Positions 36,971-60,750 of a stretch of 64,000 bases of DNA are shown piece after piece (within the stretch, counting starts at the first letter, position 1; each line of letters starts with the position of its first letter). Position numbers and translations under genes: made by a program. Under the pieces are notes generated by a model that made no database searches, had not been told where the DNA came from, and saw nothing but the letters and a program-made list of their open reading frames with translations. The DNA is from Leptospiria bacterium (GTDB taxonomy: Bacteria; Spirochaetota; Leptospiria; Turneriellales; CBDBES01): NCBI GenBank assembly GCA_965262015.1, contig OZ253494.1, positions 1,786,720-1,850,719 of the forward strand. The letters are read 5' to 3'.

Positions 36971-37067
36971 AGGTAATAAATTACATAGCACGGTTTGTTT
37001 CAAACTTGTCTATGTCAACCCATTGTTTAATTCTAGAATAAGTAAATTTGGAATAGAGAGTTAGTAC

Positions 37068-38381: not shown

Positions 38382-38386
38382 AGTTT

Positions 38387-38460: not shown

Positions 38461-38484
38461 CTTGTCTTGTAGAGGGGTCTTATA

Positions 38485-43933: not shown

Positions 43934-44006
43934 TACTCCCACCAGGATTCGAACCTGGGCACATGCCTTAGGAGGGCACTGCTCTATCCATCTGAGCTAT
44001 GGGAGC
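43934..44006 (-). tRNA. tRNA-Arg (anticodon CCT)
   Basis: Reverse complement: GCTCCCA-TA-GCTC-AGATGGATA-GAGC-A-GTGCC-CTCCTAA-GGCAT-..CCAGG-TTCGAAT-CCTGG-TGGGAGT-A. Confidence 0.85.
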
Positions 44007-44602: not shown

Positions 44603-44944
44603 GGGGACGCATTGGTTTCGACTAAGATAGTTTAGAACTATGAAAAGCATGCAAAGAGCCATCTTTTAAAAATGGCAACTTAAAATAAATGACAATAGTC
44701 AAGAATTTGCTTTAGCTGCTTAGTGCAGTTAGCGCCGTTTTATCTGTTCGCTTCTAGGTAGGTAAAATGGCTCACATTATAGAAGCTAGGTTTTGTGTGG
44801 CAAAGGCATAAAATCGAAACTATTTTGCTTAGGGTAATGTTGCACTGTCTATGAGACACATTATCTGAAACTTAATCATAGACTAAGCATGTAGAAAGCT
44901 TATTTTGATATTTTAGGACGCGGGTTCAAATCCCGCCGTCTCCA
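44603..44944 (+). ncRNA. ssrA: tmRNA (ssrA)
   Basis: 5' end GGGGACGCATTGGTTTCGAC and 3' tRNA-like end GGACGCGGGTTCAAATCCCGCCGTCTCCA. The internal tag ORF AAT GAC AAT AGT CAA GAA TTT GCT TTA GCT GCT TAG gives tag (A)NDNSQEFALAA. Confidence 0.9.
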
Positions 44945-46025
44945 TGTTTATTTCTTCATCTTGTTGTATTGTACTTATTTGGGTACTTTGTAGTCCAGAC
45001 AGTTGTCCACAGGCAGCATTAATGTCATTACCTCGATTTTTACGTATTGTGGTAAAGATATTATGTTCTATTAAATGGTTAGCAAATTTTGTTATAGTAT
45101 CCAATGAGCTTGTTTCATAAATACTTTTTTGAATTGTATTAAATGGGATGAGGTTGACCTTGGCAGGTTTACGGGATAAAATATGCACTAATTCTTTGGC
45201 ATTCTCTATAGAATCATTAATACCTTTTAGCATTACGTATTCAAAAGTAATACTACGTTTTTTCCAGTTAGACGCATAATCCCAGCATGCTGTCAAAAGA
45301 GTTTCAATGGGATAGCGTTGATTAATCGGTACTAACGTGTTTCGTAATGTATTATTTGGAGCATGTAACGAAATAGCTAGATTAACATCTAATCGTTTAA
45401 GTTTCTGAATTTGAGGTACAATTCCTGACGTACTAACCGTAATTTTTTTTCTTGATAGGTCATATAAGCGGTCATCTAAAAGCATTTCTATTGTAGAAAG
45501 AACGTTATCTAGATTGGCCATGGGCTCTCCCATACCCATAAAAACAATATTTGAAATGGGTTGCAGTTTTTTTGTTAGTACCATTTTTTTTGCATGCCAT
45601 ACCTGTCCAATAATCTCAGAAATAGTTAAATTACGTGTAAAACCTTGTTGTCCAGTGGCACAAAATGGACATTTAAATACGCAACCCACTTGTGAAGAGA
45701 TACAGAGAGTAGCTCGTTTTGTTTCGGGTATATATACTGTTTCAATCAAGTTTTGGTCATCTAACTTAAATAATAACTTATGTGTTTGATCATGAGATAT
45801 GGCTGTATAATTCAGAGGAGGGAAGGCAATGATATTATTCATGTCTAGTTTTTGACGTAAATTCTTTGAAAGATTATGCATATCTTCAAACCGAGTTACT
45901 TGAAAACCATGTATCCATTGCAATATTTGTTCAGCTCGCCATTCAGGTTCTTTCATACTAGATAAAAGTTCACGTAAATCATATTTACTATATGTGGATA
46001 GATTGGCACGCTTCATTATAGTCAT
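44913..46025 (-). CDS. rlmN: 23S rRNA/tRNA (adenine-C2)-methyltransferase RlmN (radical SAM)
   Basis: 370 aa. Motifs: CISSQVGCVFKCPFCATG (CxxxCxxC), NIVFMGMGEP, and C-terminal ..INAACGQL. The last about 10 codons read antisense through the tmRNA 3' end. Confidence 0.85.
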   Translation of the reverse strand: MTIMKRANLSTYSKYDLRELLSSMKEPEWRAEQILQWIHGFQVTRFEDMHNLSKNLRQKLDMNNIIAFPPLNYTAISHDQTHKLLFKLDDQNLIETVYIPETKRATLCISSQVGCVFKCPFCATGQQGFTRNLTISEIIGQVWHAKKMVLTKKLQPISNIVFMGMGEPMANLDNVLSTIEMLLDDRLYDLSRKKITVSTSGIVPQIQKLKRLDVNLAISLHAPNNTLRNTLVPINQRYPIETLLTACWDYASNWKKRSITFEYVMLKGINDSIENAKELVHILSRKPAKVNLIPFNTIQKSIYETSSLDTITKFANHLIEHNIFTTIRKNRGNDINAACGQLSGLQSTQISTIQQDEEINMETAGFEPAS

Positions 46026-46203: not shown

Positions 46204-47103
46204 CTACTCTACTAGAGTATAAATTGATTTAGGTATCCATTCTTTATTAATGATTGATAATTTATCCCAGTCATATGTATAATTTTCATCCCATATCCAA
46301 GAACCTAGTACGTTGACAATAGGCTTATCTGTGTTTAACAATCGTATGAATCCATCTTTGATATCATTTAGCTCTGTCCCTCTAAAAGGTATATCAAATT
46401 TATTCTTGTATTCTTTTTCTTCATGCTGGTAGTCGACTTGAGAGAAAAAGTCTTTGAAATTTTTATGGGGAACTTCCTCCATGCAATCTTTATACCACTT
46501 ATTTAGCTCAGGAAATTTACCGCTCTTCATATTTCTTTGCACTAAAACTCTAATACCACGAGATGAAAAACTCTCAAAAAAACCCAACCGAAGGATTCTA
46601 AATTTATCGTGATGTTTTATTGCTATTTCTTCCATCAGAGATTTTGCGTATAGCATTGCACCATATGACATTAGCAGTGGTTTTATCCACACAAATCCGG
46701 ATATCCCCACAGCTAAAGCTGGCTTTAGTTGCTTTGTTAATGACAATAAAGGATAAACTGAATAGCGAATACTTGTTTCAACCTCTTCCTTCGTCGCATA
46801 AGGGCAGGGAAACCCAGTGGGCCCCATAGCGAATGTATACACCATACAATCAATAGGCCTTCCTTGGATTTGTTTTATTATTTTATCTTGATATTCATCA
46901 TTGGTATAGTCTATCCCAGTGATTGTTTCATGTACATGTTCAATGTTCTCATTCCTAGAAGTGGTTCCAATGATTTTGTACTCTTCACCTCGAGAATTGC
47001 AATCATGCTTTATTCCGTCCGTAATAAACCTTCCAACATTACTGGAAGCTCCAAGTATAAGAAATGTTTTCATACAGTTACACGGGTAAGATATATGGAC
47101 CAT
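46204..47103 (-). CDS. hypothetical Rossmann-like (SDR/enoyl-reductase-like) protein
   Basis: The only hint is KTFLILGASSNVGR (glycine-rich dinucleotide-binding-like) and a loose resemblance to enoyl reductases. The start is uncertain (47103 or 47073). Confidence 0.35.
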   Translation of the reverse strand: MVHISYPCNCMKTFLILGASSNVGRFITDGIKHDCNSRGEEYKIIGTTSRNENIEHVHETITGIDYTNDEYQDKIIKQIQGRPIDCMVYTFAMGPTGFPCPYATKEEVETSIRYSVYPLLSLTKQLKPALAVGISGFVWIKPLLMSYGAMLYAKSLMEEIAIKHHDKFRILRLGFFESFSSRGIRVLVQRNMKSGKFPELNKWYKDCMEEVPHKNFKDFFSQVDYQHEEKEYKNKFDIPFRGTELNDIKDGFIRLLNTDKPIVNVLGSWIWDENYTYDWDKLSIINKEWIPKSIYTLVE

Positions 47104-47223: not shown

Positions 47224-48312
47224 TTATTTTTTTGGAGCTTTCAACCAATTGATTATAAGAGGGAATATGTCTTTGTGTGCGTTCTGAGCATACATAAAAT
47301 CCGTATGACCATAATCATGCAACATACCATTTGCTTTACTTAAAATAAACAATGTTTTATCTTTGCTACCAAGATTGTCATATATATATCTCATAACTTC
47401 GGGAGATGCTAGAATATCCTTCTTAGGGGCTATTAACAAAGACGGGACACGAATTTTATGTAGAGATTCTCTATAATTGATCGAACGATCTACACTATAA
47501 ATATCAGGGCCATGATCTCTCAGTGCATGCATAAATTGGTACCACATAGTCTTAGGGTCATTGCTTAAGGCTTTGGTTAAAGACTTAAGCTTATCTGGTG
47601 CTAAGAGGCTCATTTGACCAGGCAGACACAGAGTCTTATCAATCATATGTAGCACTGTCTTAATAGAGATAGGTAGATAATCTAAAATGGCAGCCATTTT
47701 TCCAAGATTATATAGGGGCAAATACGAAAACCCTACACCAAAAACAAGAGGGCCAAGTCTACTAGCCAAGAGATATATTTCATACGATAGGATGGCGAAT
47801 ATCACCGGTCCAGCAAGAGAAATAAATTTTGCTATTCTCTTCTCTTCATAATGTCCTAATCTAGCTAATCCTATAAAGCCACCCATACTGTGACCAATAT
47901 AAATAACTTTTTTCTTTCCAGTTTGCTCAAGTACATGAGTAATAGCCGTATCTACATCATATTTTATTAAAGGGTCCATAGAGTGACTGTCTTTTTCATG
48001 CCATCCTATTCCCTTTGGTATTTTTACTCCTTGTCTACCCCTGAAATTTATAAGCCATACATCATATCCTGATTGGTTTAGTAGAGATGGTAAACTATTA
48101 TCACCTTTTATAGTATATAGACCTGTATTCGTTCCAATAGCATGGGTTAAAATAACAGGATCTTTTGTTTTATCTAGTTGATCAGGTGCCAAGTGCTGCA
48201 CACCTATAAACCACTTATCTGTGGTTTCTACACTATACGCTTTTTCGTTACTGTGTACATTTATCTGAAATATCAGATAAAAACATAGTATAAGCATAGA
48301 AGGATTATGCAC
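47224..48312 (-). CDS. secreted alpha/beta-hydrolase (lipase/esterase-like)
   Basis: 362 aa with a signal peptide, the nucleophile elbow GHSMGG and a C-terminal HxDF-type segment (YGHTDF). Confidence 0.65.
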   Translation of the reverse strand: MHNPSMLILCFYLIFQINVHSNEKAYSVETTDKWFIGVQHLAPDQLDKTKDPVILTHAIGTNTGLYTIKGDNSLPSLLNQSGYDVWLINFRGRQGVKIPKGIGWHEKDSHSMDPLIKYDVDTAITHVLEQTGKKKVIYIGHSMGGFIGLARLGHYEEKRIAKFISLAGPVIFAILSYEIYLLASRLGPLVFGVGFSYLPLYNLGKMAAILDYLPISIKTVLHMIDKTLCLPGQMSLLAPDKLKSLTKALSNDPKTMWYQFMHALRDHGPDIYSVDRSINYRESLHKIRVPSLLIAPKKDILASPEVMRYIYDNLGSKDKTLFILSKANGMLHDYGHTDFMYAQNAHKDIFPLIINWLKAPKK

Positions 48313-48369: not shown

Positions 48370-49971
48370 TCATAATAAATTTTCTAAAAACTCCGTTGTT
48401 TCTCGTGTATAGCTACTTATATTTTTCATTTTAAGAAAACTATGAGTAATTATATTGGTGTTTTTTTCATCAATAAAAACCAAATCTTTGATAAAGCTAA
48501 GGTATTTACCAACTAAGTAGTGGGTTAGTAAAACAAAGTCACGTTTCTTATGTGCGGATGTGTATTGGTCTGTGTTTGTTTTAGAATCTAAATAAGATTT
48601 ATATAAGGTGACATATAAACAAACTGCATACGAAAATGATAATATGGTTGATGGATGACGCCTAATTTGTTTTGCGTTTACACATGCTGATCGCACCAGT
48701 CTGCCGACACTTTGTAAAATACTTAGTTCTGTTGCTAATCCTGTATCATAATCAGGATTAAAGTTAAAATCTTGTTCTTGGTTTGTTGGGAGAAATGTGA
48801 TATGTTTACATAGATACTCATAATTGCGTATACTAGAACCAATAATTAAGTGCATGATTTCACTTGTGCCACCACCAATTGAACCTAAACGAGAGTCTCT
48901 GTAGATGCGTTCCACATCATATTCTTTCATATAACCCCATCCACCTAATATTTGTATAGCTTCTCTACAACAGTCTTCACCCATATCTGTAGTGACCAAT
49001 TTAGTTATGGATGCCATGAGAACTGTATCCTGTTTACGGTCTATCAATTCTGCACAAAACTGTACTAAGCGCCTTCCATTTTGCAAAGCTAACCATATTT
49101 TAACTATTTTAGATTGTATGGCAAAATAATTTATAATAGGTTGGCCAAACTGATTCCTTTGTTTAGCATAATTTAAAGACTTGTCTAACAAAAAACTATT
49201 AAAACCGTTATTCATAGCACTCAAAGTGCTTCTTTCCCATTCTAAAGTTTTATGAATTACCCTAGAAAATCCATAATGTAGTTCTCCCAGTAAATTCTCT
49301 TTGGGTACTTTTATATTATCAAAAATCAGTTCAGATGTTTTTGAGGTATTCATCCCCATTTTCTCCAGAGGTTTTCCTGAAGAAAACCCATCTAATTTTG
49401 TTTCTAATATGAATGTAGAAATACCAAAAGGATTTCTGCTGTTAATACCTTGTGTCCTAGCCGTTACAATAACTAGATCAGCGATGGGTCCGTTTGTAAT
49501 AAACATTTTGGATCCATTTAAAATGTAATGATCTCCATCTAATTTTGCGGTAGTCAACATACTGGCTGCGTCTGAGCCAGATGAAGCTTCTGTTAAACCA
49601 AAGGAAGTTATATATTCTCCAGAAGCAATTTTAGGAAGATACTTTTTTTTTTGTTCTTCGGTTCCAAAAATAATAATGGGCAGTGTTCCAATGGTCATGG
49701 TGGCACCTATCGAAAGAGTTAGACCACCATCACCTCCTCCATAGCAAAATGCTTCAGCGGCTTGCACCAATTGTAAACAACTTCCACCTTGTCCTCCATA
49801 TTCTTGAGGAATCAATATACCTTGCAAGCCAATTTTACTGGTCTTGTGCCATATTTCTTTATCCCATCGTTGATTCTTATCTCTTTCTTGTACTGATGGG
49901 TATACATTTTGCATAGCAAATGTCTTTACTGTGTCATATAATTCAATATCTCTTACATAATGGGTATTCAT
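48370..49971 (-). CDS. acyl-CoA dehydrogenase with ~150-aa C-terminal extension (paralog A)
   Basis: 533 aa. Motifs: GLTEASSGSDAAS, MFITNG, QFGQPI, GGWGYMKEYDVERIYRD. It is a paralog of 55475-57079. Confidence 0.85.
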   Translation of the reverse strand: MNTHYVRDIELYDTVKTFAMQNVYPSVQERDKNQRWDKEIWHKTSKIGLQGILIPQEYGGQGGSCLQLVQAAEAFCYGGGDGGLTLSIGATMTIGTLPIIIFGTEEQKKKYLPKIASGEYITSFGLTEASSGSDAASMLTTAKLDGDHYILNGSKMFITNGPIADLVIVTARTQGINSRNPFGISTFILETKLDGFSSGKPLEKMGMNTSKTSELIFDNIKVPKENLLGELHYGFSRVIHKTLEWERSTLSAMNNGFNSFLLDKSLNYAKQRNQFGQPIINYFAIQSKIVKIWLALQNGRRLVQFCAELIDRKQDTVLMASITKLVTTDMGEDCCREAIQILGGWGYMKEYDVERIYRDSRLGSIGGGTSEIMHLIIGSSIRNYEYLCKHITFLPTNQEQDFNFNPDYDTGLATELSILQSVGRLVRSACVNAKQIRRHPSTILSFSYAVCLYVTLYKSYLDSKTNTDQYTSAHKKRDFVLLTHYLVGKYLSFIKDLVFIDEKNTNIITHSFLKMKNISSYTRETTEFLENLL

Positions 49972-50227
49972 TTTATCCTGTAAACTTTAGTAGGCAACCC
50001 ATTCCCAGTTATAAACCTCATTTTACCTCAGAGAAGAGAGCCTATATACCAATGTGAAAGCAATACTTACACACCCTTAGATCTCCATATTAATTATGGT
50101 ATATAATGGGAAGATCAATTATAAAAGATTACCTATATTTTTATTGACTTATTATGGCCTTTTATTCTTTATGTCGCATGTGCACCAGTATTAGATTATG
50201 TCTTAGCTTTAGTGTTGCGGTGCTTTA

Positions 50228-50674
50228 GTGCAGAAAGTTACTCATTTCCATGGTTCTTTTCTACTAGAGTATAAGAGGTCTCCCGGTAAAATAGTAGGGC
50301 GATTTCTGTCTACATTAAGAGATGAAGCTAGGATATTGGCTATTCGCTGTGCTGAGTGTAATAATGGCTTTTTGCCTCCACAGGCCTTTTGTCCAGATTG
50401 CAGGGCAAAAATGCAGACTTTCTTTGCTGTTCCTGAAACAGGTCAGGTTGCGTATTTAACAAAGGTGTGTAAGCCTGTACCATTCTTCGACTGTCCTGTA
50501 CCTTATTATTATATCGGTATCCAATTTGCAGGTGTTAATACTGTTTTCTGGCATAGGTCATTTGATGATAAGCTAGAAATTGGTGACACCATAAAAGCAG
50601 TCTTTAAGGATGAAAGTGAAAGAGTAGGATCTATTTTAGATATTGATCATTTTACCGCAGTGAAATTGATATGA
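50228..50674 (+). CDS. DUF35-family Zn-ribbon/OB-fold protein (acyl-CoA-associated)
   Basis: 148 aa with a GTG start. A four-Cys ribbon (CAECNNGFLPPQAFCPDC) is followed by an OB-fold-like region. There is a 4-nt overlap with the next gene. Confidence 0.7.
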   Translation: MQKVTHFHGSFLLEYKRSPGKIVGRFLSTLRDEARILAIRCAECNNGFLPPQAFCPDCRAKMQTFFAVPETGQVAYLTKVCKPVPFFDCPVPYYYIGIQFAGVNTVFWHRSFDDKLEIGDTIKAVFKDESERVGSILDIDHFTAVKLI

Positions 50675-52674
50675 GTTTTCAAAGTTTACCTGATTTCATT
50701 CACGCTACTACTCAAGATAGAGATGAAGCTACATACCTAATATTTAAAGACAGTAGCTATTCTTACAGGCAAATGGAAAACTTTTATTTGAAAAAGGCAA
50801 GTTTTCTACGAGACAAAACCTCTTTCAAAGAGCAAGATAAGGTCGGTATTTTTTTACCAAATAGTGTCGAGTTTGTGATCGCATTTTTTGGTGTCATGTA
50901 TGCACGAGGCACTTCAGTTACTTTTAATATCATGTTAAAGACAGACGAAATACTGTACCAAATCGATCATTCAGAGATCTCTGTACTTGTCACGAGTGCA
51001 TCTTTATTTAAGATTATAAAACCAGTAATAGACCAGTTGGACAATTTGAAAGAAATTATCTTTATTGATGATCACACAGAAACAGAACAAGATAAAAAAC
51101 ATCTAGATTTTTGGAAAGGTATAAATGATGCACAACCAATAGAAGATTATAGTATCGTACAACCGTCTGATGTTGCTGGGATTTTATATACAAGTGGTAC
51201 AACTGGGAAGCCTAAAGGGTGTATGCTATCTCATAGCAATTATTTAGCTAATATAGAATCTATAAGAAAGAGTATTCAACTGGAAAAAGACGATGTAAAT
51301 TGTTGTATCATGCCTCTTTTTCACGTAAATGGCCAGTTAGCCTCGTTACTCGCCACTATATTGTTTGGTTCTGCATTGGTATTGGAGGAATATTTCAAAC
51401 CTAGAACATTTATTGATACTCTAATTAAGTATAAGTGTAGGATGTTTAGTGCTGTCCCCGCTGTCTATAGCTACCTCAATAATATGGCAGAATATAAGGA
51501 TGGTGTAGACCTGTCATTTTTGAAGGTGTGTTTGTGTGGAGCTGCCCCTATGAAGGTTAAGATATTTAATACATTTGAAAAAAAGTTTCAAGCAAAAATT
51601 CTTGAAGGGTATGGTTTGTCTGAGGGAACATGTGCAACCGTTCTGAACCCCGTAGATGGTGTACGTAAGATTGGTTCTATTGGTAAGGTAATGCCTGACC
51701 AAGAGGTAATCATTATAGATTCTCAGGGTAAAGCTATGAAGCAGGGTCAAATAGGTGAAATTTCTATTCGTTCTGCCAGTGTTATGCTGGGTTATCTAAA
51801 AAATAAAAAAGCAACAGATGAAGTAATTGTAGATGGATGGTTGCGTACTGGTGATCTAGGTTATCAGGATGAAGATGGTTATTTTTATATTACTGGTAGA
51901 AGTAAAGAAATGATCATTCGTGGTGGTGAAAATATATATCCCAAAGAGTTAGAAGAAGTTTTAATTACATACGATGGTATGATTGAATGTGCTGTATTTG
52001 GAGTTCCCGACCAGAAGTATGGAGAAAAAGTAATTGCTGCGGTACAGCTATTAGATGGTACCCCAGAAAATCCAAGGGCTATTAATAAGTTTTTACGGGG
52101 TAAGCTTGCTAGCTATAAACAACCTGACCAAATTTTATTTGTCAGTGATTTCCCAAAAACAAGCACAGGGAAAATCCAAAAATTTCAATTACAACAAGAT
52201 TTTTTTGGAAATAAGAACCTTGTTAAAGTGCTTGAAGAAAAAATTGATATTCCTTTCAGATGGGCTTATGGAACGGCTATGTCCCGTTTTTTTACAAACA
52301 TCAAAGAGAAAGGAGCATTTATTGGCTCTGTATGCCCTTCATGTAAAGAGATTTTTGCTTTCCCCAAGTCTTATTGCGGTGCCTGTTTTACAGATTGTGA
52401 TGAATGGGTTGATCTGGGTGGACCATGTACAGTCAAGACATTCACCACCATACATGTCAAGTTTGGCGGACAACCTAAGGAGCCTCCTTATACAACAGCT
52501 TGGATACATGCTGAAGGAGTGCATATGTTTTTCTTGCACATTCTAGAGGTAGATGATGAGAAAGAGATTGTAAAGAACGCCGAGGTAGAACCTGTACTAA
52601 AACCTATAGAAGAGAGAGTGGGATCTGTTTATGACATCAAGCATTTTGTTCTAAAAAAGAGGGGTAATCAATGA
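50671..52674 (+). CDS. acyl-CoA synthetase (AMP-forming) fused to a C-terminal DUF35 Zn-ribbon/OB domain
   Basis: 667 aa. Adenylation motifs YTSGTTGKPKG, GYGLSEG, TGDLGYQDEDGYFYITGRSKE and KTSTGKIQK are followed by ..GSVCPSCKEIFAFPKSYCGAC.. plus an OB-like tail. Confidence 0.8.
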   Translation: MSFQSLPDFIHATTQDRDEATYLIFKDSSYSYRQMENFYLKKASFLRDKTSFKEQDKVGIFLPNSVEFVIAFFGVMYARGTSVTFNIMLKTDEILYQIDHSEISVLVTSASLFKIIKPVIDQLDNLKEIIFIDDHTETEQDKKHLDFWKGINDAQPIEDYSIVQPSDVAGILYTSGTTGKPKGCMLSHSNYLANIESIRKSIQLEKDDVNCCIMPLFHVNGQLASLLATILFGSALVLEEYFKPRTFIDTLIKYKCRMFSAVPAVYSYLNNMAEYKDGVDLSFLKVCLCGAAPMKVKIFNTFEKKFQAKILEGYGLSEGTCATVLNPVDGVRKIGSIGKVMPDQEVIIIDSQGKAMKQGQIGEISIRSASVMLGYLKNKKATDEVIVDGWLRTGDLGYQDEDGYFYITGRSKEMIIRGGENIYPKELEEVLITYDGMIECAVFGVPDQKYGEKVIAAVQLLDGTPENPRAINKFLRGKLASYKQPDQILFVSDFPKTSTGKIQKFQLQQDFFGNKNLVKVLEEKIDIPFRWAYGTAMSRFFTNIKEKGAFIGSVCPSCKEIFAFPKSYCGACFTDCDEWVDLGGPCTVKTFTTIHVKFGGQPKEPPYTTAWIHAEGVHMFFLHILEVDDEKEIVKNAEVEPVLKPIEERVGSVYDIKHFVLKKRGNQ

Positions 52675-53822
52675 AAACCTGTATTATATCATGTGCCGAA
52701 TCTAAATTTGTAGAGAGAGAAGATGAGTATAGTCTAGATGAATTAGTGTATTCAACAACGAAATCTGTTCTTAGCAATGCAGGCATGGGCCATGAGCAAA
52801 TAGATTGTGTTATACATGCTGGCGACGATGTGTTAGATGGAATTAATATTAATCATGTCTATCAAGTAGAGGCGGCAGGGTCTCTTCTCAAAGAAGAAAG
52901 TAAAATAGAAGCTGATGGTGCATACGCTTTGTTCTATGCAATAGCTAGATTATTATCTGGTGGATTTTCTACAGCTTTGGTTATTGGTTATTCAAAAGCC
53001 AGCGAATCTTCCTTATCCTTTGTAGATGGATACAAACCTTATTCTAGTCCTGAAGTATCAGGTAGTTGGTATTATCATACACAATTAGAACCTTTTTATT
53101 TGAGACCTCTAAAGTATGATGTTGTTTCTTATCATGCTTTGCAGTATTCTTCTTTTTTGCACAAGAGCAAGTTGACGGAAGAAGATGTCGCTATTTGTAC
53201 CCAAAAAAATAAAATGAATGGTCTAAAAAATACAAATGCTCCATTCGCTTCTGATATGTCTGTAAATGATATTTTAAGTTCAGATTATGTTTCTTCTCCT
53301 ATTCGAATAAATGAATTACCCCCGCAAACAGATGGTGTTACGGCCTTAATCGTTTCTACAGAACAATGGATGAAGGAAAACAAGAAAGAAGGTGTTTATA
53401 TTACTGGTTTTGGTATGTCTGCCGACTCATACTATCCTGGTTACAGGGATCTATCAGAGTGCCAAAGTGCAAATATCGCCATGGCTAAGGCTAAGAAAAT
53501 GTCTAATGTGGATAACGTTGAGTCTGCTGAACTTTATAGTCTTTTCTCTTATCAGGAGCTTATGCTCTACAAAGAATTATTTGGTTGGGGTTATGAAGAG
53601 ATCAAAGAAAAAGTCAAAGGAAATTATACAGGATATAACTCAAGCTTACCAGTAAATCGTTCAGGTGGTGTTATTTGTGCCCATCCTATTCTGGCGTCGG
53701 GTCTTTCTAGGATTATGCATTCAGTTAATCAGATAAAAACAGGAAAGTGTCAAAACTCACTGTCACATTCCCAATCTGGATTAGGAATGCAGAATAATAT
53801 AGTTTATATTTTAGAGGCTTGA
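52671..53822 (+). CDS. thiolase-fold protein, apparently lacking the nucleophilic Cys (subunit 1)
   Basis: 383 aa. The thiolase-like N- and C-domains retain (N)RSGGVICAHPILASG. At the C(A/G)SG-x13-SG position the sequence reads IEADGAYALFYAIARLLSGG. Confidence 0.65.
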   Translation: MKTCIISCAESKFVEREDEYSLDELVYSTTKSVLSNAGMGHEQIDCVIHAGDDVLDGININHVYQVEAAGSLLKEESKIEADGAYALFYAIARLLSGGFSTALVIGYSKASESSLSFVDGYKPYSSPEVSGSWYYHTQLEPFYLRPLKYDVVSYHALQYSSFLHKSKLTEEDVAICTQKNKMNGLKNTNAPFASDMSVNDILSSDYVSSPIRINELPPQTDGVTALIVSTEQWMKENKKEGVYITGFGMSADSYYPGYRDLSECQSANIAMAKAKKMSNVDNVESAELYSLFSYQELMLYKELFGWGYEEIKEKVKGNYTGYNSSLPVNRSGGVICAHPILASGLSRIMHSVNQIKTGKCQNSLSHSQSGLGMQNNIVYILEA

Positions 53823-54997
53823 GAATGAATAAAGCAGCAATCATCGGTACCGGTCAGACAAAGACAAAATTAAAGCGCAAGGATGTTATTTTGCCAGAAC
53901 TTATGCGTGAATCCATAGATGTAGCTTTAAGAGATGCAGATATGGAAATCCAAGAAGTAGATGCTATTTTAGTAGGTAATTCTCCTGATATGCTTGATGG
54001 AATTAATCATCCTGAACACTGGTGTACTGATATGATAGGCGGGAAAAACTTACCTGTTATACGAGTTCATACGGGTGGTACAGTAGGTGCTTCAGTTGGT
54101 ATCATGGGTCATTATACAGTAGCCTCTGGTATTTTTGATACAGTTATTGTTGTCTCAGGCAATAAACTATCAGAAACCCCTGTTCAAAGGGGGCTTACTT
54201 ATGTCTATCACCCTACTTGGGGAAGAGACTATGCCGCTGGAGCCATTTCTATTGTTGCTGGGCAAGCTAGACTTTATATGGATAGATATCCTCACATCAC
54301 AGAAAGAGTACTAGCGGAAGTAGGTGTCTTGGCTAGAAAAAACGCCCTAAATAATCCATATGCAACTTTAAAGTTACCCACAGTGAATGTAGAGATGTTA
54401 CTTAACATGGCTTATTTATCTACTCCATTAAGGTTGCTTGATTCTTGTCCAATATCAGATGGGGCTTGTGCCATGGTTATCGAGAATGGTCATAAGGCCA
54501 AAAAAAGGTCAGTTCCTAAAAGTTGGATACAAGCTGTTTCAACGATAGCTGACGGTAGCAATTATCCACAAAGAGATTGGATTAAGCCTCTCGCTTTAGA
54601 AAAGGCAGCGAGTACCGTATACAAGAAAGTTGGTATTACAAATCCCATAGAACAGCTAGACGTGGTCGAATTGTATGATGCTTTTACCGTGCAAGTCTTA
54701 CTTTGGACAGAAGGAATGGGTATTGCTGAATATGGGCAAGCTTATAAATACATAGAAGATGGGACTTTCTCTCTTAAGGGTAAATGTCCTATAAATCCAT
54801 CGGGCGGTGTACTCTCTAGTAATTCAATAGGTGCCTCTGCTATGGTAAGGCAGGTCGAGATTGCTCTGCAAATCACTAGAAAAGCTGGAGATAGGCAGGT
54901 AGAAAAAGCTGACGTTGGTTTAGCTCATGGTTGGGGGGGAGCTATCCAATTCCATGTTAATATGATACAAAGTAAGCATGAGGATTTAGTTTTATAG
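53819..54997 (+). CDS. SCP-x/Ltp-type thiolase-fold protein, apparently lacking nucleophilic Cys and catalytic His (subunit 2)
   Basis: 392 aa. Starts AAIIGTGQTK. It has VHTGGTVGASVGIMGHYTVASG in place of the Cys motif, and INPSGGVLSSNSIGASA in place of GHP.GA.G. Confidence 0.65.
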   Translation: MRMNKAAIIGTGQTKTKLKRKDVILPELMRESIDVALRDADMEIQEVDAILVGNSPDMLDGINHPEHWCTDMIGGKNLPVIRVHTGGTVGASVGIMGHYTVASGIFDTVIVVSGNKLSETPVQRGLTYVYHPTWGRDYAAGAISIVAGQARLYMDRYPHITERVLAEVGVLARKNALNNPYATLKLPTVNVEMLLNMAYLSTPLRLLDSCPISDGACAMVIENGHKAKKRSVPKSWIQAVSTIADGSNYPQRDWIKPLALEKAASTVYKKVGITNPIEQLDVVELYDAFTVQVLLWTEGMGIAEYGQAYKYIEDGTFSLKGKCPINPSGGVLSSNSIGASAMVRQVEIALQITRKAGDRQVEKADVGLAHGWGGAIQFHVNMIQSKHEDLVL

Positions 54998-55000
54998 ATA

Positions 55001-55471
55001 ATGAGTGAACTTTTAGACAGAAGTGTTTTTTTTGAAGATTTCAAGGAAGGTATGAAAATAAAGACACATGGTAGAACTTTACTCCAGTCGGATATCATGA
55101 GTTTTGCGGGTCTCACTGGGGATTTTAATCCAATACATGTAAATAGCGAATACGCTAAAGATACAGTATTTGGTCGAAATATAGCCCATGGAATGCTTAC
55201 ATTCTCTGTGGCTACTGGTTTGTCTATACTCACAGGATTTATGGATAGAAGCATTATAGCCTTTGACAGCGTAGAGAATTGGAAGTTTAAAAGGCCAGTA
55301 TTCCCTGGTGATACTGTGCATGTTGTAATAATATGCCAGAAAAAAGAAAAATATAATTTTCGAGGGAATGTGACGGGAGGCTTGGTCAAGTGTCATGCTG
55401 ATGTGATCAACCAAAAGAATAAGATATGTCAATCAGGTATCTTATGTTTCTTTGTACAAAATCGTAGCTAA
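55001..55471 (+). CDS. MaoC-like (R)-specific enoyl-CoA hydratase (hot-dog fold)
   Basis: 156 aa. Reads FAGLTGDFNPIHVNSEYAKDTVFGRNIAHGML (hydratase 2 motif). Confidence 0.8.
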   Translation: MSELLDRSVFFEDFKEGMKIKTHGRTLLQSDIMSFAGLTGDFNPIHVNSEYAKDTVFGRNIAHGMLTFSVATGLSILTGFMDRSIIAFDSVENWKFKRPVFPGDTVHVVIICQKKEKYNFRGNVTGGLVKCHADVINQKNKICQSGILCFFVQNRS

Positions 55472-55474
55472 AAT

Positions 55475-57079
55475 ATGTATTATATACCTAAAGATTCTGT
55501 CGAAGTTTTTCAATCGTTCAAGAAATTTGCACGGGATAAGATATTACCATCAGTACAAGAAAGAGATAAAACAGAGTACTGGGATAAGACAATATGGGAA
55601 GGTCTTTCAGAAATTGGTGCTTTGGGTGCTTTAATACCAGAAGAATATGGGGGGCAGGGTGCTACTTGTTTACAAGCAGTGTTAATGACGGAAGCACTTG
55701 CTGTAGGTAGTGCAGATGGAGGGCTTATTCTAGCTACCAACGTCCAGATGGTCATTGGGACAGTTCCCATCATTATCTTTGGAACCGAAGAACAAAAGAA
55801 AAAATATCTTCCTAAAATTGCCTCTGGAAAATATATAACCTCCTTTGGTTTAACAGAAGCTTCATCTGGCTCTGACGCAGCCAGTATGTTGACTACTGCA
55901 AAATTAGATGGAGATCATTATATTTTAAATGGATCCAAAATGTTTATTACAAACGGGCCTATTGCTGATCTAGTTATTGTAACGGCTAGGACAGATAAGA
56001 AGCAAAGTAGAAGTGCATTTGGTATTTCTACTTTCATACTGGAAACAAAATTAGAGGGGTTTTCTTCAGGAAAACCTTTGGAAAAAATGGGGATGAATAG
56101 CTCAAAAACATCTGAACTGATTTTTGATAATATGAAAGTACCCAAAGAGAATTTACTAGGGGAACTACATTATGGATTTTCTAGGGTAATTCATACAAAT
56201 TTAGAATGGGAGAGGGTGATTTTAATGGCCAATGGACTTGGCTCTACAACATATGTATTAGAAACATGCTTTAGGTATAGTCTAGAAAGAAAACAGTTTG
56301 GGCAATCTATTATTAATTTTTATGCTATATATAGTAAACTGGTTATGTTATGGTGTATGAGCACAGCAGCTCGCCGGTATTTATATGCAGTGGCTATTTT
56401 AAAAGATAAAGGTCATAAGATTCTATTTCAAGCTTCCATAGCCAAGCTTTTTATTACAGACTATGGTGAGGGGTGCTTCAGAGATGGTATACAAATATTA
56501 GGTGGATGGGGTTATATGAAAGAGTATGACGTGGAACGTATTTACAGAGATGCACGCTTGGGTACTATTGGTGGTGGTACAAATACAGTCATGCAAATGA
56601 TTATTGCATCAAGTATACGTAATTATGGTAGTTTTTGTGCGGGTCTAGAACTATTTGAAGAAAGTAAAAACGAGTGTTTGATGAAAGAGAAGTACCCCAC
56701 TAGTATATCAAGAGAATTAGAAGCTTTATTATGCTTAAGATCTCTAGTCGAATCTGCTTATAAGCAGATAAAAACCATAAGGAAAAGTCAAGAAACTATG
56801 ATAAGCTTTTCTAATGTAATATGTATGTATTCTATTTTACAACATTCCTATTGGGATTGTGCTGTGGACACAGAGAATTATACATCTGCTCATAAAAAAC
56901 GAGATTTCTTTTTACTTTTGAACTATATGATCAATCAAAATCTTCATTCTATACAAAGCCTATCTTTTGTGGATGAAAAAAATGCAAGTGATTTACTAGA
57001 TAACATGCTCAAAATGAAGAATATCGATGAGAACATGAAAACAACAATGGATTTTTTAAGAAATCAATATTTTGTATAG
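55475..57079 (+). CDS. acyl-CoA dehydrogenase with ~150-aa C-terminal extension (paralog B)
   Basis: 534 aa with the same motifs as 48370-49971. A central tract of about 440 nt is nearly identical to paralog A. Confidence 0.85.
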   Translation: MYYIPKDSVEVFQSFKKFARDKILPSVQERDKTEYWDKTIWEGLSEIGALGALIPEEYGGQGATCLQAVLMTEALAVGSADGGLILATNVQMVIGTVPIIIFGTEEQKKKYLPKIASGKYITSFGLTEASSGSDAASMLTTAKLDGDHYILNGSKMFITNGPIADLVIVTARTDKKQSRSAFGISTFILETKLEGFSSGKPLEKMGMNSSKTSELIFDNMKVPKENLLGELHYGFSRVIHTNLEWERVILMANGLGSTTYVLETCFRYSLERKQFGQSIINFYAIYSKLVMLWCMSTAARRYLYAVAILKDKGHKILFQASIAKLFITDYGEGCFRDGIQILGGWGYMKEYDVERIYRDARLGTIGGGTNTVMQMIIASSIRNYGSFCAGLELFEESKNECLMKEKYPTSISRELEALLCLRSLVESAYKQIKTIRKSQETMISFSNVICMYSILQHSYWDCAVDTENYTSAHKKRDFFLLLNYMINQNLHSIQSLSFVDEKNASDLLDNMLKMKNIDENMKTTMDFLRNQYFV

Positions 57080-57247
57080 CTATCCTTTTTAGTAATAAAT
57101 GTGGTAGTAGTAAGGTACACAGAAAAAAAATTGAAAATCATTTAGCTGTATTTTTTGTGAGAATATAAGCTAAGGGGTAGCTTGAGAATGTTGTCAAACA
57201 ACTAGAAAAATATTTTGACAGAAAAATAGATTATTACACCTTAAAAC

Positions 57248-57360
57248 AAAGAAATATATTTAGATCTTGTACTATAATCAATAGGATGTACGACCTTATC
57301 GCTATAAGGGAAAACTGTTAACTAAGTCTATTCTATCCATACATAGTGCTGACTCTCCAC
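57248..57360 (+). mobile_element. IS30 3'-end remnant
   Basis: aaatatatttagatcttgtactataatcaataggatgta..aagggaaaactgttaactaagtctattctatcc matches 13024-13105. Confidence 0.5.
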
Positions 57361-57442
57361 TTTACTTTACATTTAATATGTAAAATTATATTGACTTAGT
57401 AGGTATGTCAACACCAACAGTTTCTCAGAGAGGATATAAAAT

Positions 57443-58639
57443 ATGGATTATGCACAATATGTACAAAATGCTATGCCAGGTGTGGCTGTAAATGATGACT
57501 TAGTGCAAATTGTAGAGGTGGTAGATAAAATTGGTAAGGAACAAATTGTTCCTGTTCGGGCTGAACTAGATGAAAAAGAGGAATTTCCTTATAAAATATT
57601 AGAAAAACTTAAGAAAGCTGGTGTCTATCAAGTACTTTATAGCGACAAGTTTGGTGGTCTAAACTTGGGCGGGTTAGGGCTTTGTTTGATTATAGAGACA
57701 GTTAGTAAATATTGCCTAGGAGTTTGTACATCTTTTGGTGGAAATAAATTATGTTCGTTACCAATAGAAGTAGGTGGGACAAAGGAACAGCATCGAAAAT
57801 ATGTTGATCCTCTTGCCTGTGGTGAAATATTAGGTGCCGTAGCTTTGAGTGAGCCACATGCGGGCTCTGATGTACCCAGTATGTCTACGAGTGCAGTAAA
57901 AAAGGGTAGTGCATATATTTTAAATGGCACAAAACAGTGGATTACCAATGCAGGTGTTGCTGATCTATACGTTATTTTTGCTATGACAGATAAATCCAAG
58001 GGTGCCAGGGGTATGTCCGCTTTTATTGTTGAGAAAGATACACCTGGTTTGAGTTTTGGTAAAAAAGAAAATAAACTGGGTATACGCTGTTCACATACAC
58101 GTCAGGTTATTCTAGATAATTGCGAAATTCCTGAGGATAATTTAATTGGTTTGGTACCGGGGAGGGGGTTTATTCATGCCGTGAATACACTAACTACTTC
58201 TAGACCATTAGTAGCAACAATGGCCGTTGGTGTGTCACAAGGTGCTTATCATGAGGCTCTTAAGTATACTTATCAGAGAGAACAGTTTAATACTAAAATT
58301 ATTAATTTTCAGGCAGTTGGTCATATGCTAGCAGATATGGGAACGAGGATAGATGCGTCACGCCTATTAAGTTATCGTGCAAGTATTTATGTGACAGAAA
58401 AGAATCCTGAGGCCTCTAAGTACGCCTCGATGGCAAAGTATTATGCTGCTGAGACAGCTGTATCAGTGGTTAATGATTCTCTGCAATTACATGGTGGCTA
58501 TGGATATACCAAAGATTATCCCATAGAGAAAATGTATCGAGATGCTAAGATACTTACTATTTATGAAGGTACTTCTCAAATACAAAAAAATGAAATTGCT
58601 GCCTATGCTGTAAAGCATGCAAATAAACTTAGTCAATAG
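57443..58639 (+). CDS. acyl-CoA dehydrogenase, short/medium-chain type
   Basis: 398 aa. Motifs: ALSEPHAGSDV, QWITNAG, REQFNTKI, IYEGTSQIQ. Confidence 0.85.
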   Translation: MDYAQYVQNAMPGVAVNDDLVQIVEVVDKIGKEQIVPVRAELDEKEEFPYKILEKLKKAGVYQVLYSDKFGGLNLGGLGLCLIIETVSKYCLGVCTSFGGNKLCSLPIEVGGTKEQHRKYVDPLACGEILGAVALSEPHAGSDVPSMSTSAVKKGSAYILNGTKQWITNAGVADLYVIFAMTDKSKGARGMSAFIVEKDTPGLSFGKKENKLGIRCSHTRQVILDNCEIPEDNLIGLVPGRGFIHAVNTLTTSRPLVATMAVGVSQGAYHEALKYTYQREQFNTKIINFQAVGHMLADMGTRIDASRLLSYRASIYVTEKNPEASKYASMAKYYAAETAVSVVNDSLQLHGGYGYTKDYPIEKMYRDAKILTIYEGTSQIQKNEIAAYAVKHANKLSQ

Positions 58640-58677
58640 TAATCATCTATAGATTAGGTTTTGTGTAGTTTCCCCTT

Positions 58678-60750
58678 TTGATAGTTTGCTTATTTTTTGA
58701 TTTACCTTTTGTAAAGCCAGTACTTTTTCAGGTACCAGATAAATTAAAGCCTAAAATAATTCTTCATGGTCGTGTAGTAGCAAATGTTCAAGGTGCATCT
58801 CACACTAGCTTTGTATATGATATATTATTAGCTGGAGATCCTAAATACCCAACCACTTTGAGCCGTATAGAAGCTATCCACCATATAGTGGATAAAGAAG
58901 CCATTCTAAACAAGGAACAACTTGCCATTGCTGTATTTCTTGCAGACTATTATATATGTACACTAGGAGAGGCCATCTTTCGTATTTTACCTGCAGGTAA
59001 AAATATGCCATCTAGTAATGTATTAGTTAAACAAAATATACCTATTAAGGCTAGTGTACAATCTCTATTAGAGCAACAAAAACAAGTATTATCTGATATA
59101 TCAACTAATATGAGCAAGCGTAAAAAGAATGCACCCTATATTCATCTCATTTTTGGTATTACAGGTTCAGGGAAAACACGCCTCTATTTAGAATTAATTA
59201 ATCAAAAATTATGTAATCAAGAAGGTGTAATTCTAATGCTACCTGAGATCGCTTTGTCATACCAATTTTTGGATATCTTATCCCCCTATTATGGTGATCA
59301 AATGGTATTATTGCACTCAAATTTAACAGTTACTGAGAGACTAACAGCTTATATGAAGTTAAAAAAAGGTGAAGTATTTTTAGCAGTGGGCACTCGTTCT
59401 ACTATTTTTGCCCCTATTTGTAATTTATCTCTTGTTATTATAGACGAGGAGCATGATCAGTCTTATAAAGAAAGTCAAAAGCCTTATTATCATACTAAAA
59501 CAATCGCATGGTTTCGTTTAAATGCAATTTCAAAAGAAACTGGAATTGATACAATGCTTATTCTAGGTTCAGCAACCCCATCATTGGAAAGTTATTATCT
59601 AGCGAAGCAGTCTGTTATTGGTCTATCATATTTACGTAAAAGAGCTACCCAACAGCCTTTGCCTCATATACATACCATTTCACATAATGTTTTTCATAGT
59701 AGTGCATCTATTTTTTCACTATTTCTCATTAAGAAAATAGAACATCACTTGCAAGCCAATAAACAAATTATCTTGCTTCTAAATCGTAGAGGTTATAGCC
59801 ATTTTGTTTTTTGTAAGACTTGTAAAAGTAGTATCTCTTGTTCTCGATGTTCTATCACAATGACATATCATCAAAGTAAGAGTGGTAAGGGTGGGGCCAA
59901 AAGTTTTTTACAATGTCATCTCTGTGGTTTACAGAAAAACTATGTTACTACATGTGCTAGTTGCCGTTCTCCTCTGACGTTGATGGGGAAGGGTATCCAG
60001 AAAGTTGAAGATGCACTAGATTTTCACTTTCCTGAGATACCTTATGCTAGAATTGATCAAAATACTGCCAGAACAAAAAACTATGTTCCAGAAATTTTAG
60101 AGGCATTTCGTAACAAAGAAATTCGTATTTTAATTGGTACACAAATGCTCGCAAAAGGCTTTGATCTGCCTGGTGTCACGTTAGTAGGTATTGTCAATGC
60201 AGATATCGGTCTAAACCTACCTGATTTTCGATGTATGGAACGTATTGCACAATTACTCACCCAAACAGCGGGTAGAGCAGGCAGGCACGAAGCAGGGGAA
60301 GTCGTTATGCAGACTATGCAGTCAGATAACCCAGCAATCCAATTATCAACAAATTACCAATATGAAGAGTTTATGCAATATGAGTTAAAAATTAGAAAAC
60401 TAATGTTTTATCCTCCGTATTGTAAAATGATTCGCATTCTTATTAGTTCCCAAAAAGAATCTACGTTATTAGAAATGTATTCTAAACTTAATCATTTATT
60501 ACATCATGAAGTATTTCATGGAGGCTTATTTAGTAATCATACTGCTATCTATCCCCATGAGATTTTAGGTCCCGTAGAGGCACCCATCTACAAAATTAAA
60601 AATATGTATAGATATCATGTTTTATTTAAAGATCTAGATCACAAAAAACTTCGTTTATTTGCTAAAGAGGTGGCAGCATTTTTGGATAAGCTAAAACATA
60701 AACATGATTTTTTATATTCTATTGATGTAGACCCTGTAGATCTTTTATAA
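58678..60750 (+). CDS. priA: primosomal protein N' (replication restart helicase PriA)
   Basis: 690 aa with a TTG start. Walker A is GITGSGKT and the DEAH-type box is IIDEEHD. The Cys-rich Zn region reads CKTCKSSISCSRCS...CHLCG...CASC. Motif VI-like segment is QTAGRAGR. Confidence 0.9.
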   Translation: MIVCLFFDLPFVKPVLFQVPDKLKPKIILHGRVVANVQGASHTSFVYDILLAGDPKYPTTLSRIEAIHHIVDKEAILNKEQLAIAVFLADYYICTLGEAIFRILPAGKNMPSSNVLVKQNIPIKASVQSLLEQQKQVLSDISTNMSKRKKNAPYIHLIFGITGSGKTRLYLELINQKLCNQEGVILMLPEIALSYQFLDILSPYYGDQMVLLHSNLTVTERLTAYMKLKKGEVFLAVGTRSTIFAPICNLSLVIIDEEHDQSYKESQKPYYHTKTIAWFRLNAISKETGIDTMLILGSATPSLESYYLAKQSVIGLSYLRKRATQQPLPHIHTISHNVFHSSASIFSLFLIKKIEHHLQANKQIILLLNRRGYSHFVFCKTCKSSISCSRCSITMTYHQSKSGKGGAKSFLQCHLCGLQKNYVTTCASCRSPLTLMGKGIQKVEDALDFHFPEIPYARIDQNTARTKNYVPEILEAFRNKEIRILIGTQMLAKGFDLPGVTLVGIVNADIGLNLPDFRCMERIAQLLTQTAGRAGRHEAGEVVMQTMQSDNPAIQLSTNYQYEEFMQYELKIRKLMFYPPYCKMIRILISSQKESTLLEMYSKLNHLLHHEVFHGGLFSNHTAIYPHEILGPVEAPIYKIKNMYRYHVLFKDLDHKKLRLFAKEVAAFLDKLKHKHDFLYSIDVDPVDLL

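Follow-up and report, generated by a model that had tools for sequence, protein, structure and literature searches.

A 64-kb stretch of DNA from a Leptospiria bacterium (contig OZ253494.1) raises the question of how the products of one tightly packed operon break the carbon chain of their substrate: by plain beta-oxidation or by cleavage of another type. The whole stretch is called the window below and coordinates refer to it, unless they are given with an L-number (L001, L082 etc.), which denotes a comparison locus. The operon encodes two proteins of the thiolase fold, designated ThlA (thiolase-fold A) and ThlB (thiolase-fold B), together with DUF35 domains, an acyl-CoA synthetase (ACS), a MaoC-type hydratase and an acyl-CoA dehydrogenase (ACAD). 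Our analysis upheld the core logic of the original prediction for this locus, namely that DUF35, Cys-less thiolase-fold proteins, MaoC and ACAD together point to C-C cleavage of the aldol type, acting on an unusual acyl-CoA, and not to plain beta-oxidation. The proposed analogy with the igr/Ltp2 system had to be replaced: sequence comparison indicates that the closest known relatives are the Ltp4/Ltp3 pair with its tandem-DUF35 neighbour (Rv3521 type), not Ltp2/igr. The genes of the operon are as follows.

50228-50674, plus strand: DUF35a, 148 aa; Pfam zf-ChsH2 at E 5e-6, CxxC...CxxC in the translation
50671-52674, plus strand: acyl-CoA synthetase::DUF35b fusion, 667 aa; AMP-binding (E 8e-83), AMP-binding_C and OB_ChsH2_C
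52671-53822, plus strand: ThlA, Ltp4-like, Cys-less, 383 aa; Pfam Thiolase_C_1 only
53825-54997, plus strand: ThlB, Ltp3-like, Cys-less, 390 aa from ATG; Pfam Thiolase_N and Thiolase_C_1
55001-55471, plus strand: MaoC-type hydratase, 156 aa; Pfam MaoC_dehydratas at E 2e-26
55475-57079, plus strand: long ACAD, 534 aa; all three ACAD Pfam domains

Pfam profile searches confirmed all of these identities, which had been predicted from the sequence. For ThlB the open reading frame (ORF) list gives a TTG start at 53819 (392 aa), and the ATG at 53825 gives the 390 aa used here. Reading of the junctions revealed two ATGA start/stop overlaps, the first of which joins the DUF35a stop to the start of the ACS::DUF35 gene, followed by gaps of 2, 3 and 3 nt. 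The tight coupling of the six genes is therefore real. Seven coupled genes had been predicted; the coupling was borne out, and the count should be six, as many as were named in the prediction's own list. Seven-gene versions with two ACADs do occur in related Leptospirales operons, e.g. L082. Since the same set is syntenic across dozens of independent contigs, the arrangement is not due to chance. A promoter and terminator scan of 49800-58800 gave counts no different from shuffled expectation.

Thiolase residues lost from ThlA and ThlB

Alignment of ThlB to solved thiolases placed Gly87 at the position of the nucleophilic Cys (AACASG is changed to TGGTVG). In the same alignment the HDCF motif reads Y286-D-A-F, and G-H-P reads S-N-S, with Asn335 in place of the GHP His. 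ThlA has Gly83 at the nucleophile position, as seen both in the ThlA/ThlB alignment and in the family alignment; its HDCF motif reads Y-S-L-F and its GHP motif A-H-P, the His being kept. Because Gly replaces the nucleophilic Cys in both proteins, neither ThlA nor ThlB is a thiolase. The original prediction had named, as the outcome that would tell against it, a grouping of both proteins with degradative thiolases that have intact catalytic residues; what was found was the Cys to Gly change and separate clades.

These changes are a property of the family. Cys was absent from all 63-66 ThlB homologues aligned, in which E284, Y286, F289, N335, R82, T85, Q351 and Q360 were retained, and E284, Y286, N335, R82, T85, Q351 and Q360 were conserved in at least 97% of 63 ThlB sequences from bacteria and Asgard archaea. 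In the ThlA family alignment D53, E76, D82, K109, Q158, E287, Q295, H366 and Q374 were the invariant polar residues; the HDCF-equivalent position holds Tyr in the clade of the window and His elsewhere, including Ltp4. The window clade (P0002-P0008) is also the only one with an insertion of ~19 residues (FVDGYKPYSSPEVSGSWYY) at ThlA residues ~115-131, which was modeled with pLDDT <50.

Two thiolase-derived aldolases have been characterized in this respect. In TcLtp2 the Tyr of YDHF is the catalytic base and Tyr344 the acid, whereas CtSal acts via Tyr302 and Cys304 of YDCY, and in Sal a backbone Gly (Gly89) occupies the former nucleophile position (PMC12329534). ThlB carries both hallmark substitutions of such aldolases, since it has Gly at the Cys site and Tyr at the position of the Ltp2/Sal base. 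Its invariant E284-x-Y286 and N335 make ThlB the likely catalytic subunit, with Tyr286 as the putative base, as in Ltp2 and Sal.

AlphaFold2 models of ThlA (pLDDT 87) and ThlB (pLDDT 84) both showed the SCP2/archaeal-thiolase fold, with Foldseek TM-scores of 0.8-0.9 to 7yvy, 6esq, 4yzo and 6hsp. Ltp2 ranked 26th for ThlB and 25th for ThlA among the Foldseek matches, and Sal ranked 34th and 23rd, respectively. The thiolase-like protein ST0096 (4yzo) was both the best fold match and the best PDB match of ThlA.

Relatives, composition and distribution of the module

The best NCBIfam model for ThlA was PRK07937/NF005924 (Ltp4 family) with 184 bits (cutoff 419), and for ThlB PRK08313/NF006180 (Ltp3 family) with 364 bits (cutoff 514). 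As these scores are below the cutoffs, ThlA and ThlB are distant relatives that stand outside the curated Ltp4/Ltp3 subfamilies. Orthologues of Ltp4 and Ltp3 from Tsukamurella scored above cutoff on the same models (593 and 734 bits). Compared directly, ThlA is 25% identical to the Tsukamurella Ltp4 orthologue over the full length (E 8e-41) and ThlB 36% identical to the Ltp3 orthologue (E 3e-80); the Cys-less TGG/TAG-S-VG and SGGVLSSN motifs are common to the window proteins and the Tsukamurella orthologues.

In the Tsukamurella locus (L006), which was found by tblastn of plasmid-labelled records, two thiolase-domain genes are accompanied by genes for a crotonase, an OB-fold protein of 309 aa and a fadD19-like ligase; cyp and fadA5 lie nearby. 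In M. tuberculosis the order is Rv3515c fadD19, Rv3516 echA19, Rv3521, Rv3522 ltp4 and Rv3523 ltp3 (PMC6429209), and L006 matches this order. The window has an Ltp4-like gene followed by an Ltp3-like gene, the order also present in L006 and in Nocardia (L087).

A neighbour-joining tree was built from numpy distances with 200 bootstraps; the references were three PDB sequences, transcribed from HMMER alignments, and thiolases derived from the loci. ThlA formed a clade with Ltp4 (78% bootstrap) and ThlB a clade with Ltp3 (96%), both apart from archaeal thiolases. The thiolase references split off at 74%, and ST0096 lay outside both clades. Ltp2, Sal, BbsB and SCPx were absent from the tree and were compared by bit score instead. 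In phmmer, ThlB scored 241 bits with Ltp3, 150 with the best thiolase (P. furiosus), 111 with BbsB, 80 with Sal and 63 with Ltp2 (6ok1_A), and Ltp2 ranked 11th and 7th in two PDB sequence searches.

The one-to-one match is thus with Ltp4 and Ltp3. Three defining features of the igr/Ltp2 family were tested and none was found, which places the cluster outside that family. First, the Ltp2 active site (YDHF and Tyr344) corresponds to YDAF in ThlB and YSLF in ThlA. Second, no DUF35 domain lies C-terminal to the MaoC subunit, nor is there a heteromeric hydratase of two MaoC subunits; the expected ChsH1-ChsH2-type enzyme proved to be a single 156-aa protein without DUF35, and DUF35 occurs here as a free protein and as a domain of the ligase. 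Third, the bit score given above shows that the putative aldolase is not close to Ltp2 in sequence. The ACADs likewise departed from the predicted FadE pair of igr, not being of the FadE28/29 type. No Ltp2 was present in a 50-kb stretch around ltp4/ltp3 of Nocardia farcinica (L087).

An operon on plasmid pLP1 of Rhodococcus qingshengii (L005, 4682-14339) is igr-like, with two ACADs, split MaoC-N/MaoC-C, a single DUF35, a CoA-transferase, a short-chain dehydrogenase/reductase and a ligase. It also encodes an Ltp3-like thiolase-domain protein and a 304-aa "hypothetical protein" that resembles a truncated ThlA. This operon bridges the igr-type and Ltp3/4-type systems.

The two DUF35 domains of the window are distinct paralogues. 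DUF35a, whose best PDB matches were an archaeal DUF35 (6esq_E) and the DUF35 of ChsH2 (6ok1_B), is of the a-type, which is kept beside the module in Leptospirales; the ligase-fused domain is of the b-type. In the fusion protein the ACS domain covers aa 1-515 and DUF35b aa 516-667 (DNA ~52216-52674), and a search with the isolated tail confirmed its zinc ribbon and OB fold. About 40 fused ACS::DUF35 homologues were found, every one from metagenome-assembled genomes (MAGs) of the Leptospirales type, and the fusion is specific to Leptospirales. The 309-aa Rv3521-like protein of Tsukamurella is a tandem DUF35, and a tandem fusion is also present in some Blastocatellia.

The adenylation motifs of the ligase are intact in the translation. 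The unfused proteins closest to it, at 51-52% identity, are "long-chain fatty acid-CoA ligases" of Leptospira; that of L. kmetyi has an unrelated gene context, with no ThlA/ThlB beside it. The ACS domain was also considered as a FadD19 orthologue. This was rejected, as the identity of 27% is at the generic level of the ANL family and the closest unfused relatives are the Leptospira ligases.

We scanned 185,579 species genomes with the ThlA motif KVExDGA[FWY] and obtained 80 loci, all from MAGs. The bacterial lineages were Leptospirales, Blastocatellia, Planctomycetota, Dehalococcoidia, Actinomycetota of the Geothermincolia type, Clostridia, Syntrophomonadaceae and Desulfovibrionaceae; the archaeal ones were Hermod-, Prometh-, Thor- and Odinarchaeota and Ca. 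Methanolliviera. In cultured Leptospira genomes this pattern scan did not find the module. At E<=1e-30 a ThlA profile matched 1,472 representatives of clusters formed at 50% identity.

Neighbourhoods were mapped with our own ORF calls and phmmer. ThlB lies directly 3′ of ThlA in 60 of the 68 evaluable loci. For DUF35, 46 loci were evaluable, and in 38 of these the A/B pair has two or more such domains beside it. The composition of two thiolase-fold proteins and two DUF35 domains is therefore conserved, and the DUF35 pair occurs as two genes, as a tandem fusion (Rv3521-like, 309 aa) or as one free and one ACS-fused domain. Gene order depends on the lineage. Actinomycetota and Asgard archaea have DUF35-A-B-DUF35; Dehalococcoidia, Blastocatellia, Proteobacteria and Clostridia have A-B-DUF35-DUF35; most Leptospirales have A-B-DUF35-ACS::DUF35-MaoC-ACAD-ACAD, and the clade of the window (L001, L008) has DUF35-ACS::DUF35-A-B-MaoC. 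Among the eight exceptions to the A/B adjacency is an orphan ThlA in a Leptospirales MAG (L010, 10001-11134), with no adjacent ThlB or DUF35 and followed by a GDPD phosphodiesterase and a peroxiredoxin. A Promethearchaeia MAG (L074) carries two complete DUF35-ThlA-ThlB-DUF35 modules (9408-12848 and 15264-18671), which indicates paralogous expansion in this Asgard archaeon; the same contig has an ordinary thiolase and DUF35 pair and three ligases.

The proposed route and its alternatives

We consider it rather probable that the operon encodes a self-contained route of activation, dehydrogenation, hydration and retro-aldol cleavage, which would shorten an acyl chain without 3-hydroxyacyl-CoA dehydrogenase or thiolase. 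The acyl-CoA synthetase would form the CoA thioester. The long ACAD would then introduce the 2,3 double bond, passing electrons probably to the electron-transferring flavoprotein (ETF) encoded at 4531-6272, and the MaoC hydratase would add water to give a 3-hydroxyacyl-CoA. Finally, a heteromer of ThlA, ThlB and the two DUF35 domains would split the C-alpha/C-beta bond by retro-aldol chemistry, giving acetyl- or propionyl-CoA and an aldehyde or ketone. By analogy with Sal-ShyDUF35, an alpha-beta-beta-alpha heterotetramer (PMC12329534), this may be a heterodimer of ThlA and ThlB with a DUF35 at either side; in Leptospirales one of these domains would carry the CoA ligase. In the window one DUF35 would be free and the other would tether the synthetase to the aldolase complex. 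Retro-aldol chemistry would be required where the beta-carbon is tertiary or sterically blocked, so that candidate substrates are, speculatively, beta-branched (isoprenoid-type beta-methyl) or otherwise bulky acids.

The gene content of related operons fits this route. Neither 3-hydroxyacyl-CoA dehydrogenase nor true thiolase was found in the operon of the window or in that of L082, which contains only ThlA, ThlB, DUF35, ACS::DUF35, MaoC and two ACADs and is bounded by signalling genes and ilvD. The operon of the window is equivalent to this set, except that just one ACAD is in line; its paralogue is transcribed divergently. The MaoC protein, an enoyl-CoA hydratase of the (R)-specific type, consists of one hot-dog, and its best PDB match was 1q6w. 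The hydratase-2 motif has the form [YF]-x(1,2)-[LVIG]-[STGC]-G-D-x-N-P-[LIV]-H, and it is intact here as F-x2-L-T-G-D-F-N-P-I-H (FAGLTGDFNPIH in the translation).

The following neighbouring genes bear on the route.

46204-47073, minus strand: conserved protein, 289 aa from M11; Rossmann-like GASSxxG motif near the N-terminus
47224-48312, minus strand: alpha/beta hydrolase (lipase/esterase-like) with a hydrophobic N-terminus; Abhydrolase_1, Hydrolase_4
48370-49971, minus strand: paralogue of the long ACAD, 533 aa, divergent; Pfam, 59% identical to the operon ACAD
57443-58639, plus strand: conventional butyryl-CoA-dehydrogenase-like ACAD, 398 aa, with the YEG glutamate; Pfam, NCBIfam, alignment

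The second long ACAD, the hydrolase and the 398-aa ACAD are as originally described. The last lies 364 nt beyond the operon end and reads IYEGT in the alignment, i.e. it has the normal YEG glutamate. The operon ACAD, its paralogue and the L082 ACADs (15216-17584) have IG[GA]GT in place of the Y-E-G glutamate of medium-chain ACADs. Operon-linked ACADs carry a conserved LEWER or ER motif, and the operon ACAD of the window, which shares 50% identity with the first of the two ACADs in the L082 operon, reads LEWER and IGGGT. We take LEWER to correspond to the helix-G glutamate of isovaleryl-CoA dehydrogenases (IVDs) and long-chain ACADs, enzymes able to take branched or bulky substrates, and IVDs were among the top PDB matches of the operon ACAD. 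These motifs suggest that the operon ACADs use a catalytic base of the IVD/long-chain type. The core of the long ACADs is extended by a C-terminal tail of ~150 aa, which is conserved between the two paralogues of the window (56630-57079 and 48370-48820) and L001 (1790-3400), is missing from the orthologous 390-aa ACAD of L082 and gave no significant Pfam match, even at E<=10. Next to the hydrolase, whose position suggests a role in the pathway, the 289-aa protein gave no Pfam or NCBIfam match even at E<=10 and a weak FabI-like PDB match (E 0.05). In a Leptospiraceae MAG (L001, 3397-4257) an orthologue with 38% identity immediately follows the long ACAD, and from this gene order the protein appears to be a partner of the long ACAD.

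Several points weigh against the retro-aldol route. The ACS domain is most like ordinary Leptospira long-chain fatty-acid ligases and fits plain as well as unusual fatty acids. ThlB has neither the His and Tyr344 of Ltp2 nor the Cys304 of Sal, and no catalytic acid could be assigned. The operon contains no aldehyde dehydrogenase, which the L082 operon lacks too, and no ketone-processing enzyme for the cleavage product. The 289-aa Rossmann-like protein could serve the pathway as a so far unrecognised dehydrogenase or reductase, and a 3-hydroxyacyl-CoA dehydrogenase or thiolase elsewhere in the genome may act in trans. As to the relatives, Ltp3/Ltp4 are described, from Rhodococcus genetics and literature statements, as aldol-lyases that release propionyl-CoA in a retro-aldol reaction and are needed for C24-branched sterol side chains only, and their genes are co-induced ~97-fold with fadD19 and echA19 on phytosterol (PMC6273163, PMC10832528, PMC6593523). 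Our literature search gave no biochemical or structural study of them, and their aldol-lyase role rests on genetics and analogy.

The alternative that survives best is that ThlA and ThlB are non-catalytic lipid-binding, carrier or scaffold proteins which organise the ligase, hydratase and ACADs, with cleavage carried out elsewhere by FadA/FadB. All canonical thiolase catalytic residues are gone from ThlB and most from ThlA, and DUF35/thiolase assemblies can recruit MaoC and reductase partners (bioRxiv 10.1101/2024.07.05.601840); the missing Ltp2 and Sal acid residues and the ordinary appearance of the ACS domain also fit. However, the conservation of polar active-site residues in ThlB from bacteria to Asgard archaea is hard to explain in a scaffold, the Tyr is an experimentally proven base in Ltp2 and Sal (PMC12329534), and operons of the L082 type hold no cleaving enzyme besides ThlA/ThlB. 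We therefore regard a scaffold as unlikely.

Formation of a C-C bond by biosynthetic aldol- or Claisen-type condensation, as in archaeal KT/DUF35 fatty acid synthesis, thiolase/HMG-CoA synthase or PhlABC/MucABC, seems quite improbable. All structurally known DUF35-partnered thiolase-fold systems were among the fold matches, archaeal KT/DUF35 binds a MaoC dehydratase (bioRxiv 10.1101/2024.07.05.601840), and the module is common in Asgard archaea and anaerobes. Those systems, however, all need the nucleophilic Cys that is absent here. The partners in the window are catabolic (an AMP-forming ligase for free acids, ETF-type ACADs and a nearby hydrolase), as are the relatives Ltp3/4 (PMC6273163, PMC10832528, PMC6593523), and neither an HMG-CoA synthase/KAS III-like partner nor a recognisable reductase was seen. 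A PhlABC-like acyltransferase in particular was rejected on the lack of Cys and of the KAS III/HMG-CoA synthase partner.

Finally, an ordinary beta-oxidation cluster with ThlA/ThlB as working 3-ketoacyl-CoA thiolases is scarcely credible and was rejected on residue evidence (Cys to Gly in both proteins; loss of the HDCF His and Cys and the GHP His in ThlB), although fatty acids are what Leptospira-type bacteria live on, homologues are labelled "acetyl-CoA C-acetyltransferase" or "thiolase family protein" in public annotations, and ACADs and ETF are abundant in the window; the lack of 3-hydroxyacyl-CoA dehydrogenase from both operons and the results for cultured Leptospira and the L. kmetyi ligase also speak against it.

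The predicted spirochaete-like nature of the genome is supported: for all proteins tested the nearest homologues (52-72% identity) came from Leptospiraceae/Leptospirales MAGs. In the window, flagellin and many NHL-repeat proteins are also encoded. ETF beta/alpha genes (4531-6272) are accompanied by a further ACAD of 597 aa (8736-10529), and four ACADs in 64 kb suggest a lipid-oxidising lifestyle. Four NHL-repeat beta-propeller proteins, one of 1630 aa, are encoded at 859-2418, 13305-18197, 19864-21072 and 22104-23507, and their genes coincide with raised local GC (0.42-0.44 compared with ~0.35) and with a strong GC skew that reaches 0.36. Downstream of a PD40/OmpA protein, at 26685-31103, two large ORFs of 888 and 581 aa lie side by side; they had no Pfam match at E<=1e-6. 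A tmRNA gene (44603-44944, plus strand; tag DNSQEFALAA) overlaps with its 3′ end the listed end of an RlmN-like ORF (44913-46025, minus strand). There are five tRNA genes in the window, with listed coordinates 36820-36971, 38310-38461 and 43934-44006.

Tentatively, and with more doubt than confidence, we propose that ThlA, ThlB and two DUF35 domains form an unrecognised, widespread heterotetrameric retro-aldolase, present from Leptospirales, Blastocatellia and Dehalococcoidia to Asgard archaea, which bypasses the block of beta-oxidation at beta-branched or bulky acyl-CoAs. If so, the bypass would be independent of oxygen and of a carboxylase, it would act on e.g. isoprenoid acids of the phytanate or farnesoate type or side chains attached to rings, and it would yield a ketone or aldehyde and acetyl-CoA. 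In Leptospirales the ACS::DUF35 fusion would physically link the module to a CoA ligase of its own, and the actinobacterial Ltp3/Ltp4/Rv3521 set would be just the sterol-specialised branch of the family. To our knowledge, Ltp3/Ltp4 have been named for years in every mycobacterial cholesterol-cluster map without a biochemical description; our analysis suggests that the pair is one branch of a large family. Its architecture of two Cys-less thiolase-fold proteins and two DUF35 domains predicts an alpha-beta-beta′-alpha′ complex, with ThlB E284, Y286 and N335 as targets for mutagenesis, and the ligase::DUF35 fusion may be read as a Rosetta-stone link of CoA ligase to aldolase, mirroring the genetic FadD19-Ltp3/4 link in Actinobacteria. 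Confirmation of the aldolase function would establish a hydratase/aldolase alternative to thiolytic beta-oxidation. It would have consequences for how branched lipids are turned over in soils, oceans and anoxic sediments, for annotation (the acetyl-CoA acetyltransferase labels) and for biocatalytic C-C cleavage and formation.

Comparison with known systems

Structural similarity was highest to the archaeal thiolase/HMG-CoA synthase/DUF35 complex (6esq) and the Sulfolobus KT/DUF35-MaoC-reductase complex (TM 0.87-0.90), in which DUF35 has the role of assembly factor and MaoC may join the complex. Their thiolases keep the catalytic Cys and His and perform Claisen condensation or thiolysis; these residues are absent here. 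ST0096 of Sulfolobus tokodaii (4yzo) resembles the window proteins in lacking the nucleophilic Cys (VDNTSGSGGS), and it was the best PDB match not only of ThlA but also of a genuine Ltp3 orthologue. It differs in keeping the HD and GHP histidines and in its position outside the A and B clades.

The benzoylsuccinyl-CoA thiolase BbsAB (7pxp) and PhlABC/MucABC share with the window a DUF35 subunit and a thiolase-fold subunit of the SCP2 type, and in Phl/Muc two different thiolase-superfamily subunits are found within one complex. However, BbsB and PhlC depend on a catalytic Cys, the second subunit of Phl/Muc is KAS III/HMG-CoA synthase-like and not a second SCP2-type protein, and all of these systems have just one DUF35 type.

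Closer in logic are the steroid systems. With Ltp2-ChsH2-ChsH1 (6ok1) the cluster has in common a thiolase fold with DUF35, the change of Cys to Gly, a Tyr at the first position of the HDCF-equivalent motif, a co-encoded MaoC hydratase with ACADs, and the sequence of ACAD, hydratase and retro-aldol steps. It differs in having YDAF in place of YDHF and Asn at the position of the thiolase GHP His, and in its predicted hetero (A+B) core, Ltp2 being a homodimer. Sal-Shy, the bile-acid side-chain aldolase of Proteobacteria (9myr), is likewise a thiolase-fold aldolase with DUF35, a Tyr base and Gly at the Cys site; an amide residue follows the Tyr after ~50 residues in both (Gln352 in Sal, Asn335 in ThlB), and the MaoC hydratase of Sal-Shy is self-sufficient (PMC12329534), as a single MaoC protein would be here. 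In contrast to ThlB, which has Ala at this position, Sal has an essential Cys304 (YDCY); it is homodimeric, its DUF35 is fused to the hydratase Shy, and it is remote in sequence, as the bit scores show.

The Ltp4/Ltp3/Rv3521 set shares with the window two adjacent Cys-less thiolase-fold genes in the same order and in shared clades, two DUF35 domains alongside and an acyl-CoA ligase next door. The differences are that the DUF35 domains of the window are split, one free and one ligase-fused, whereas those of Rv3521 form a tandem fusion; that the hydratase is MaoC-type and not crotonase-type as EchA19; that ThlA of the window clade carries Tyr and His at positions occupied by His and Asn in Ltp4; and that the window is without steroid-degradation genes. 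New here are the ligase::DUF35 fusion, MaoC instead of crotonase, the Leptospirales host and a widespread module of fixed two-plus-two composition. Overall, judged by analogy, the cluster appears to work like the steroid hydratase/aldolase systems.

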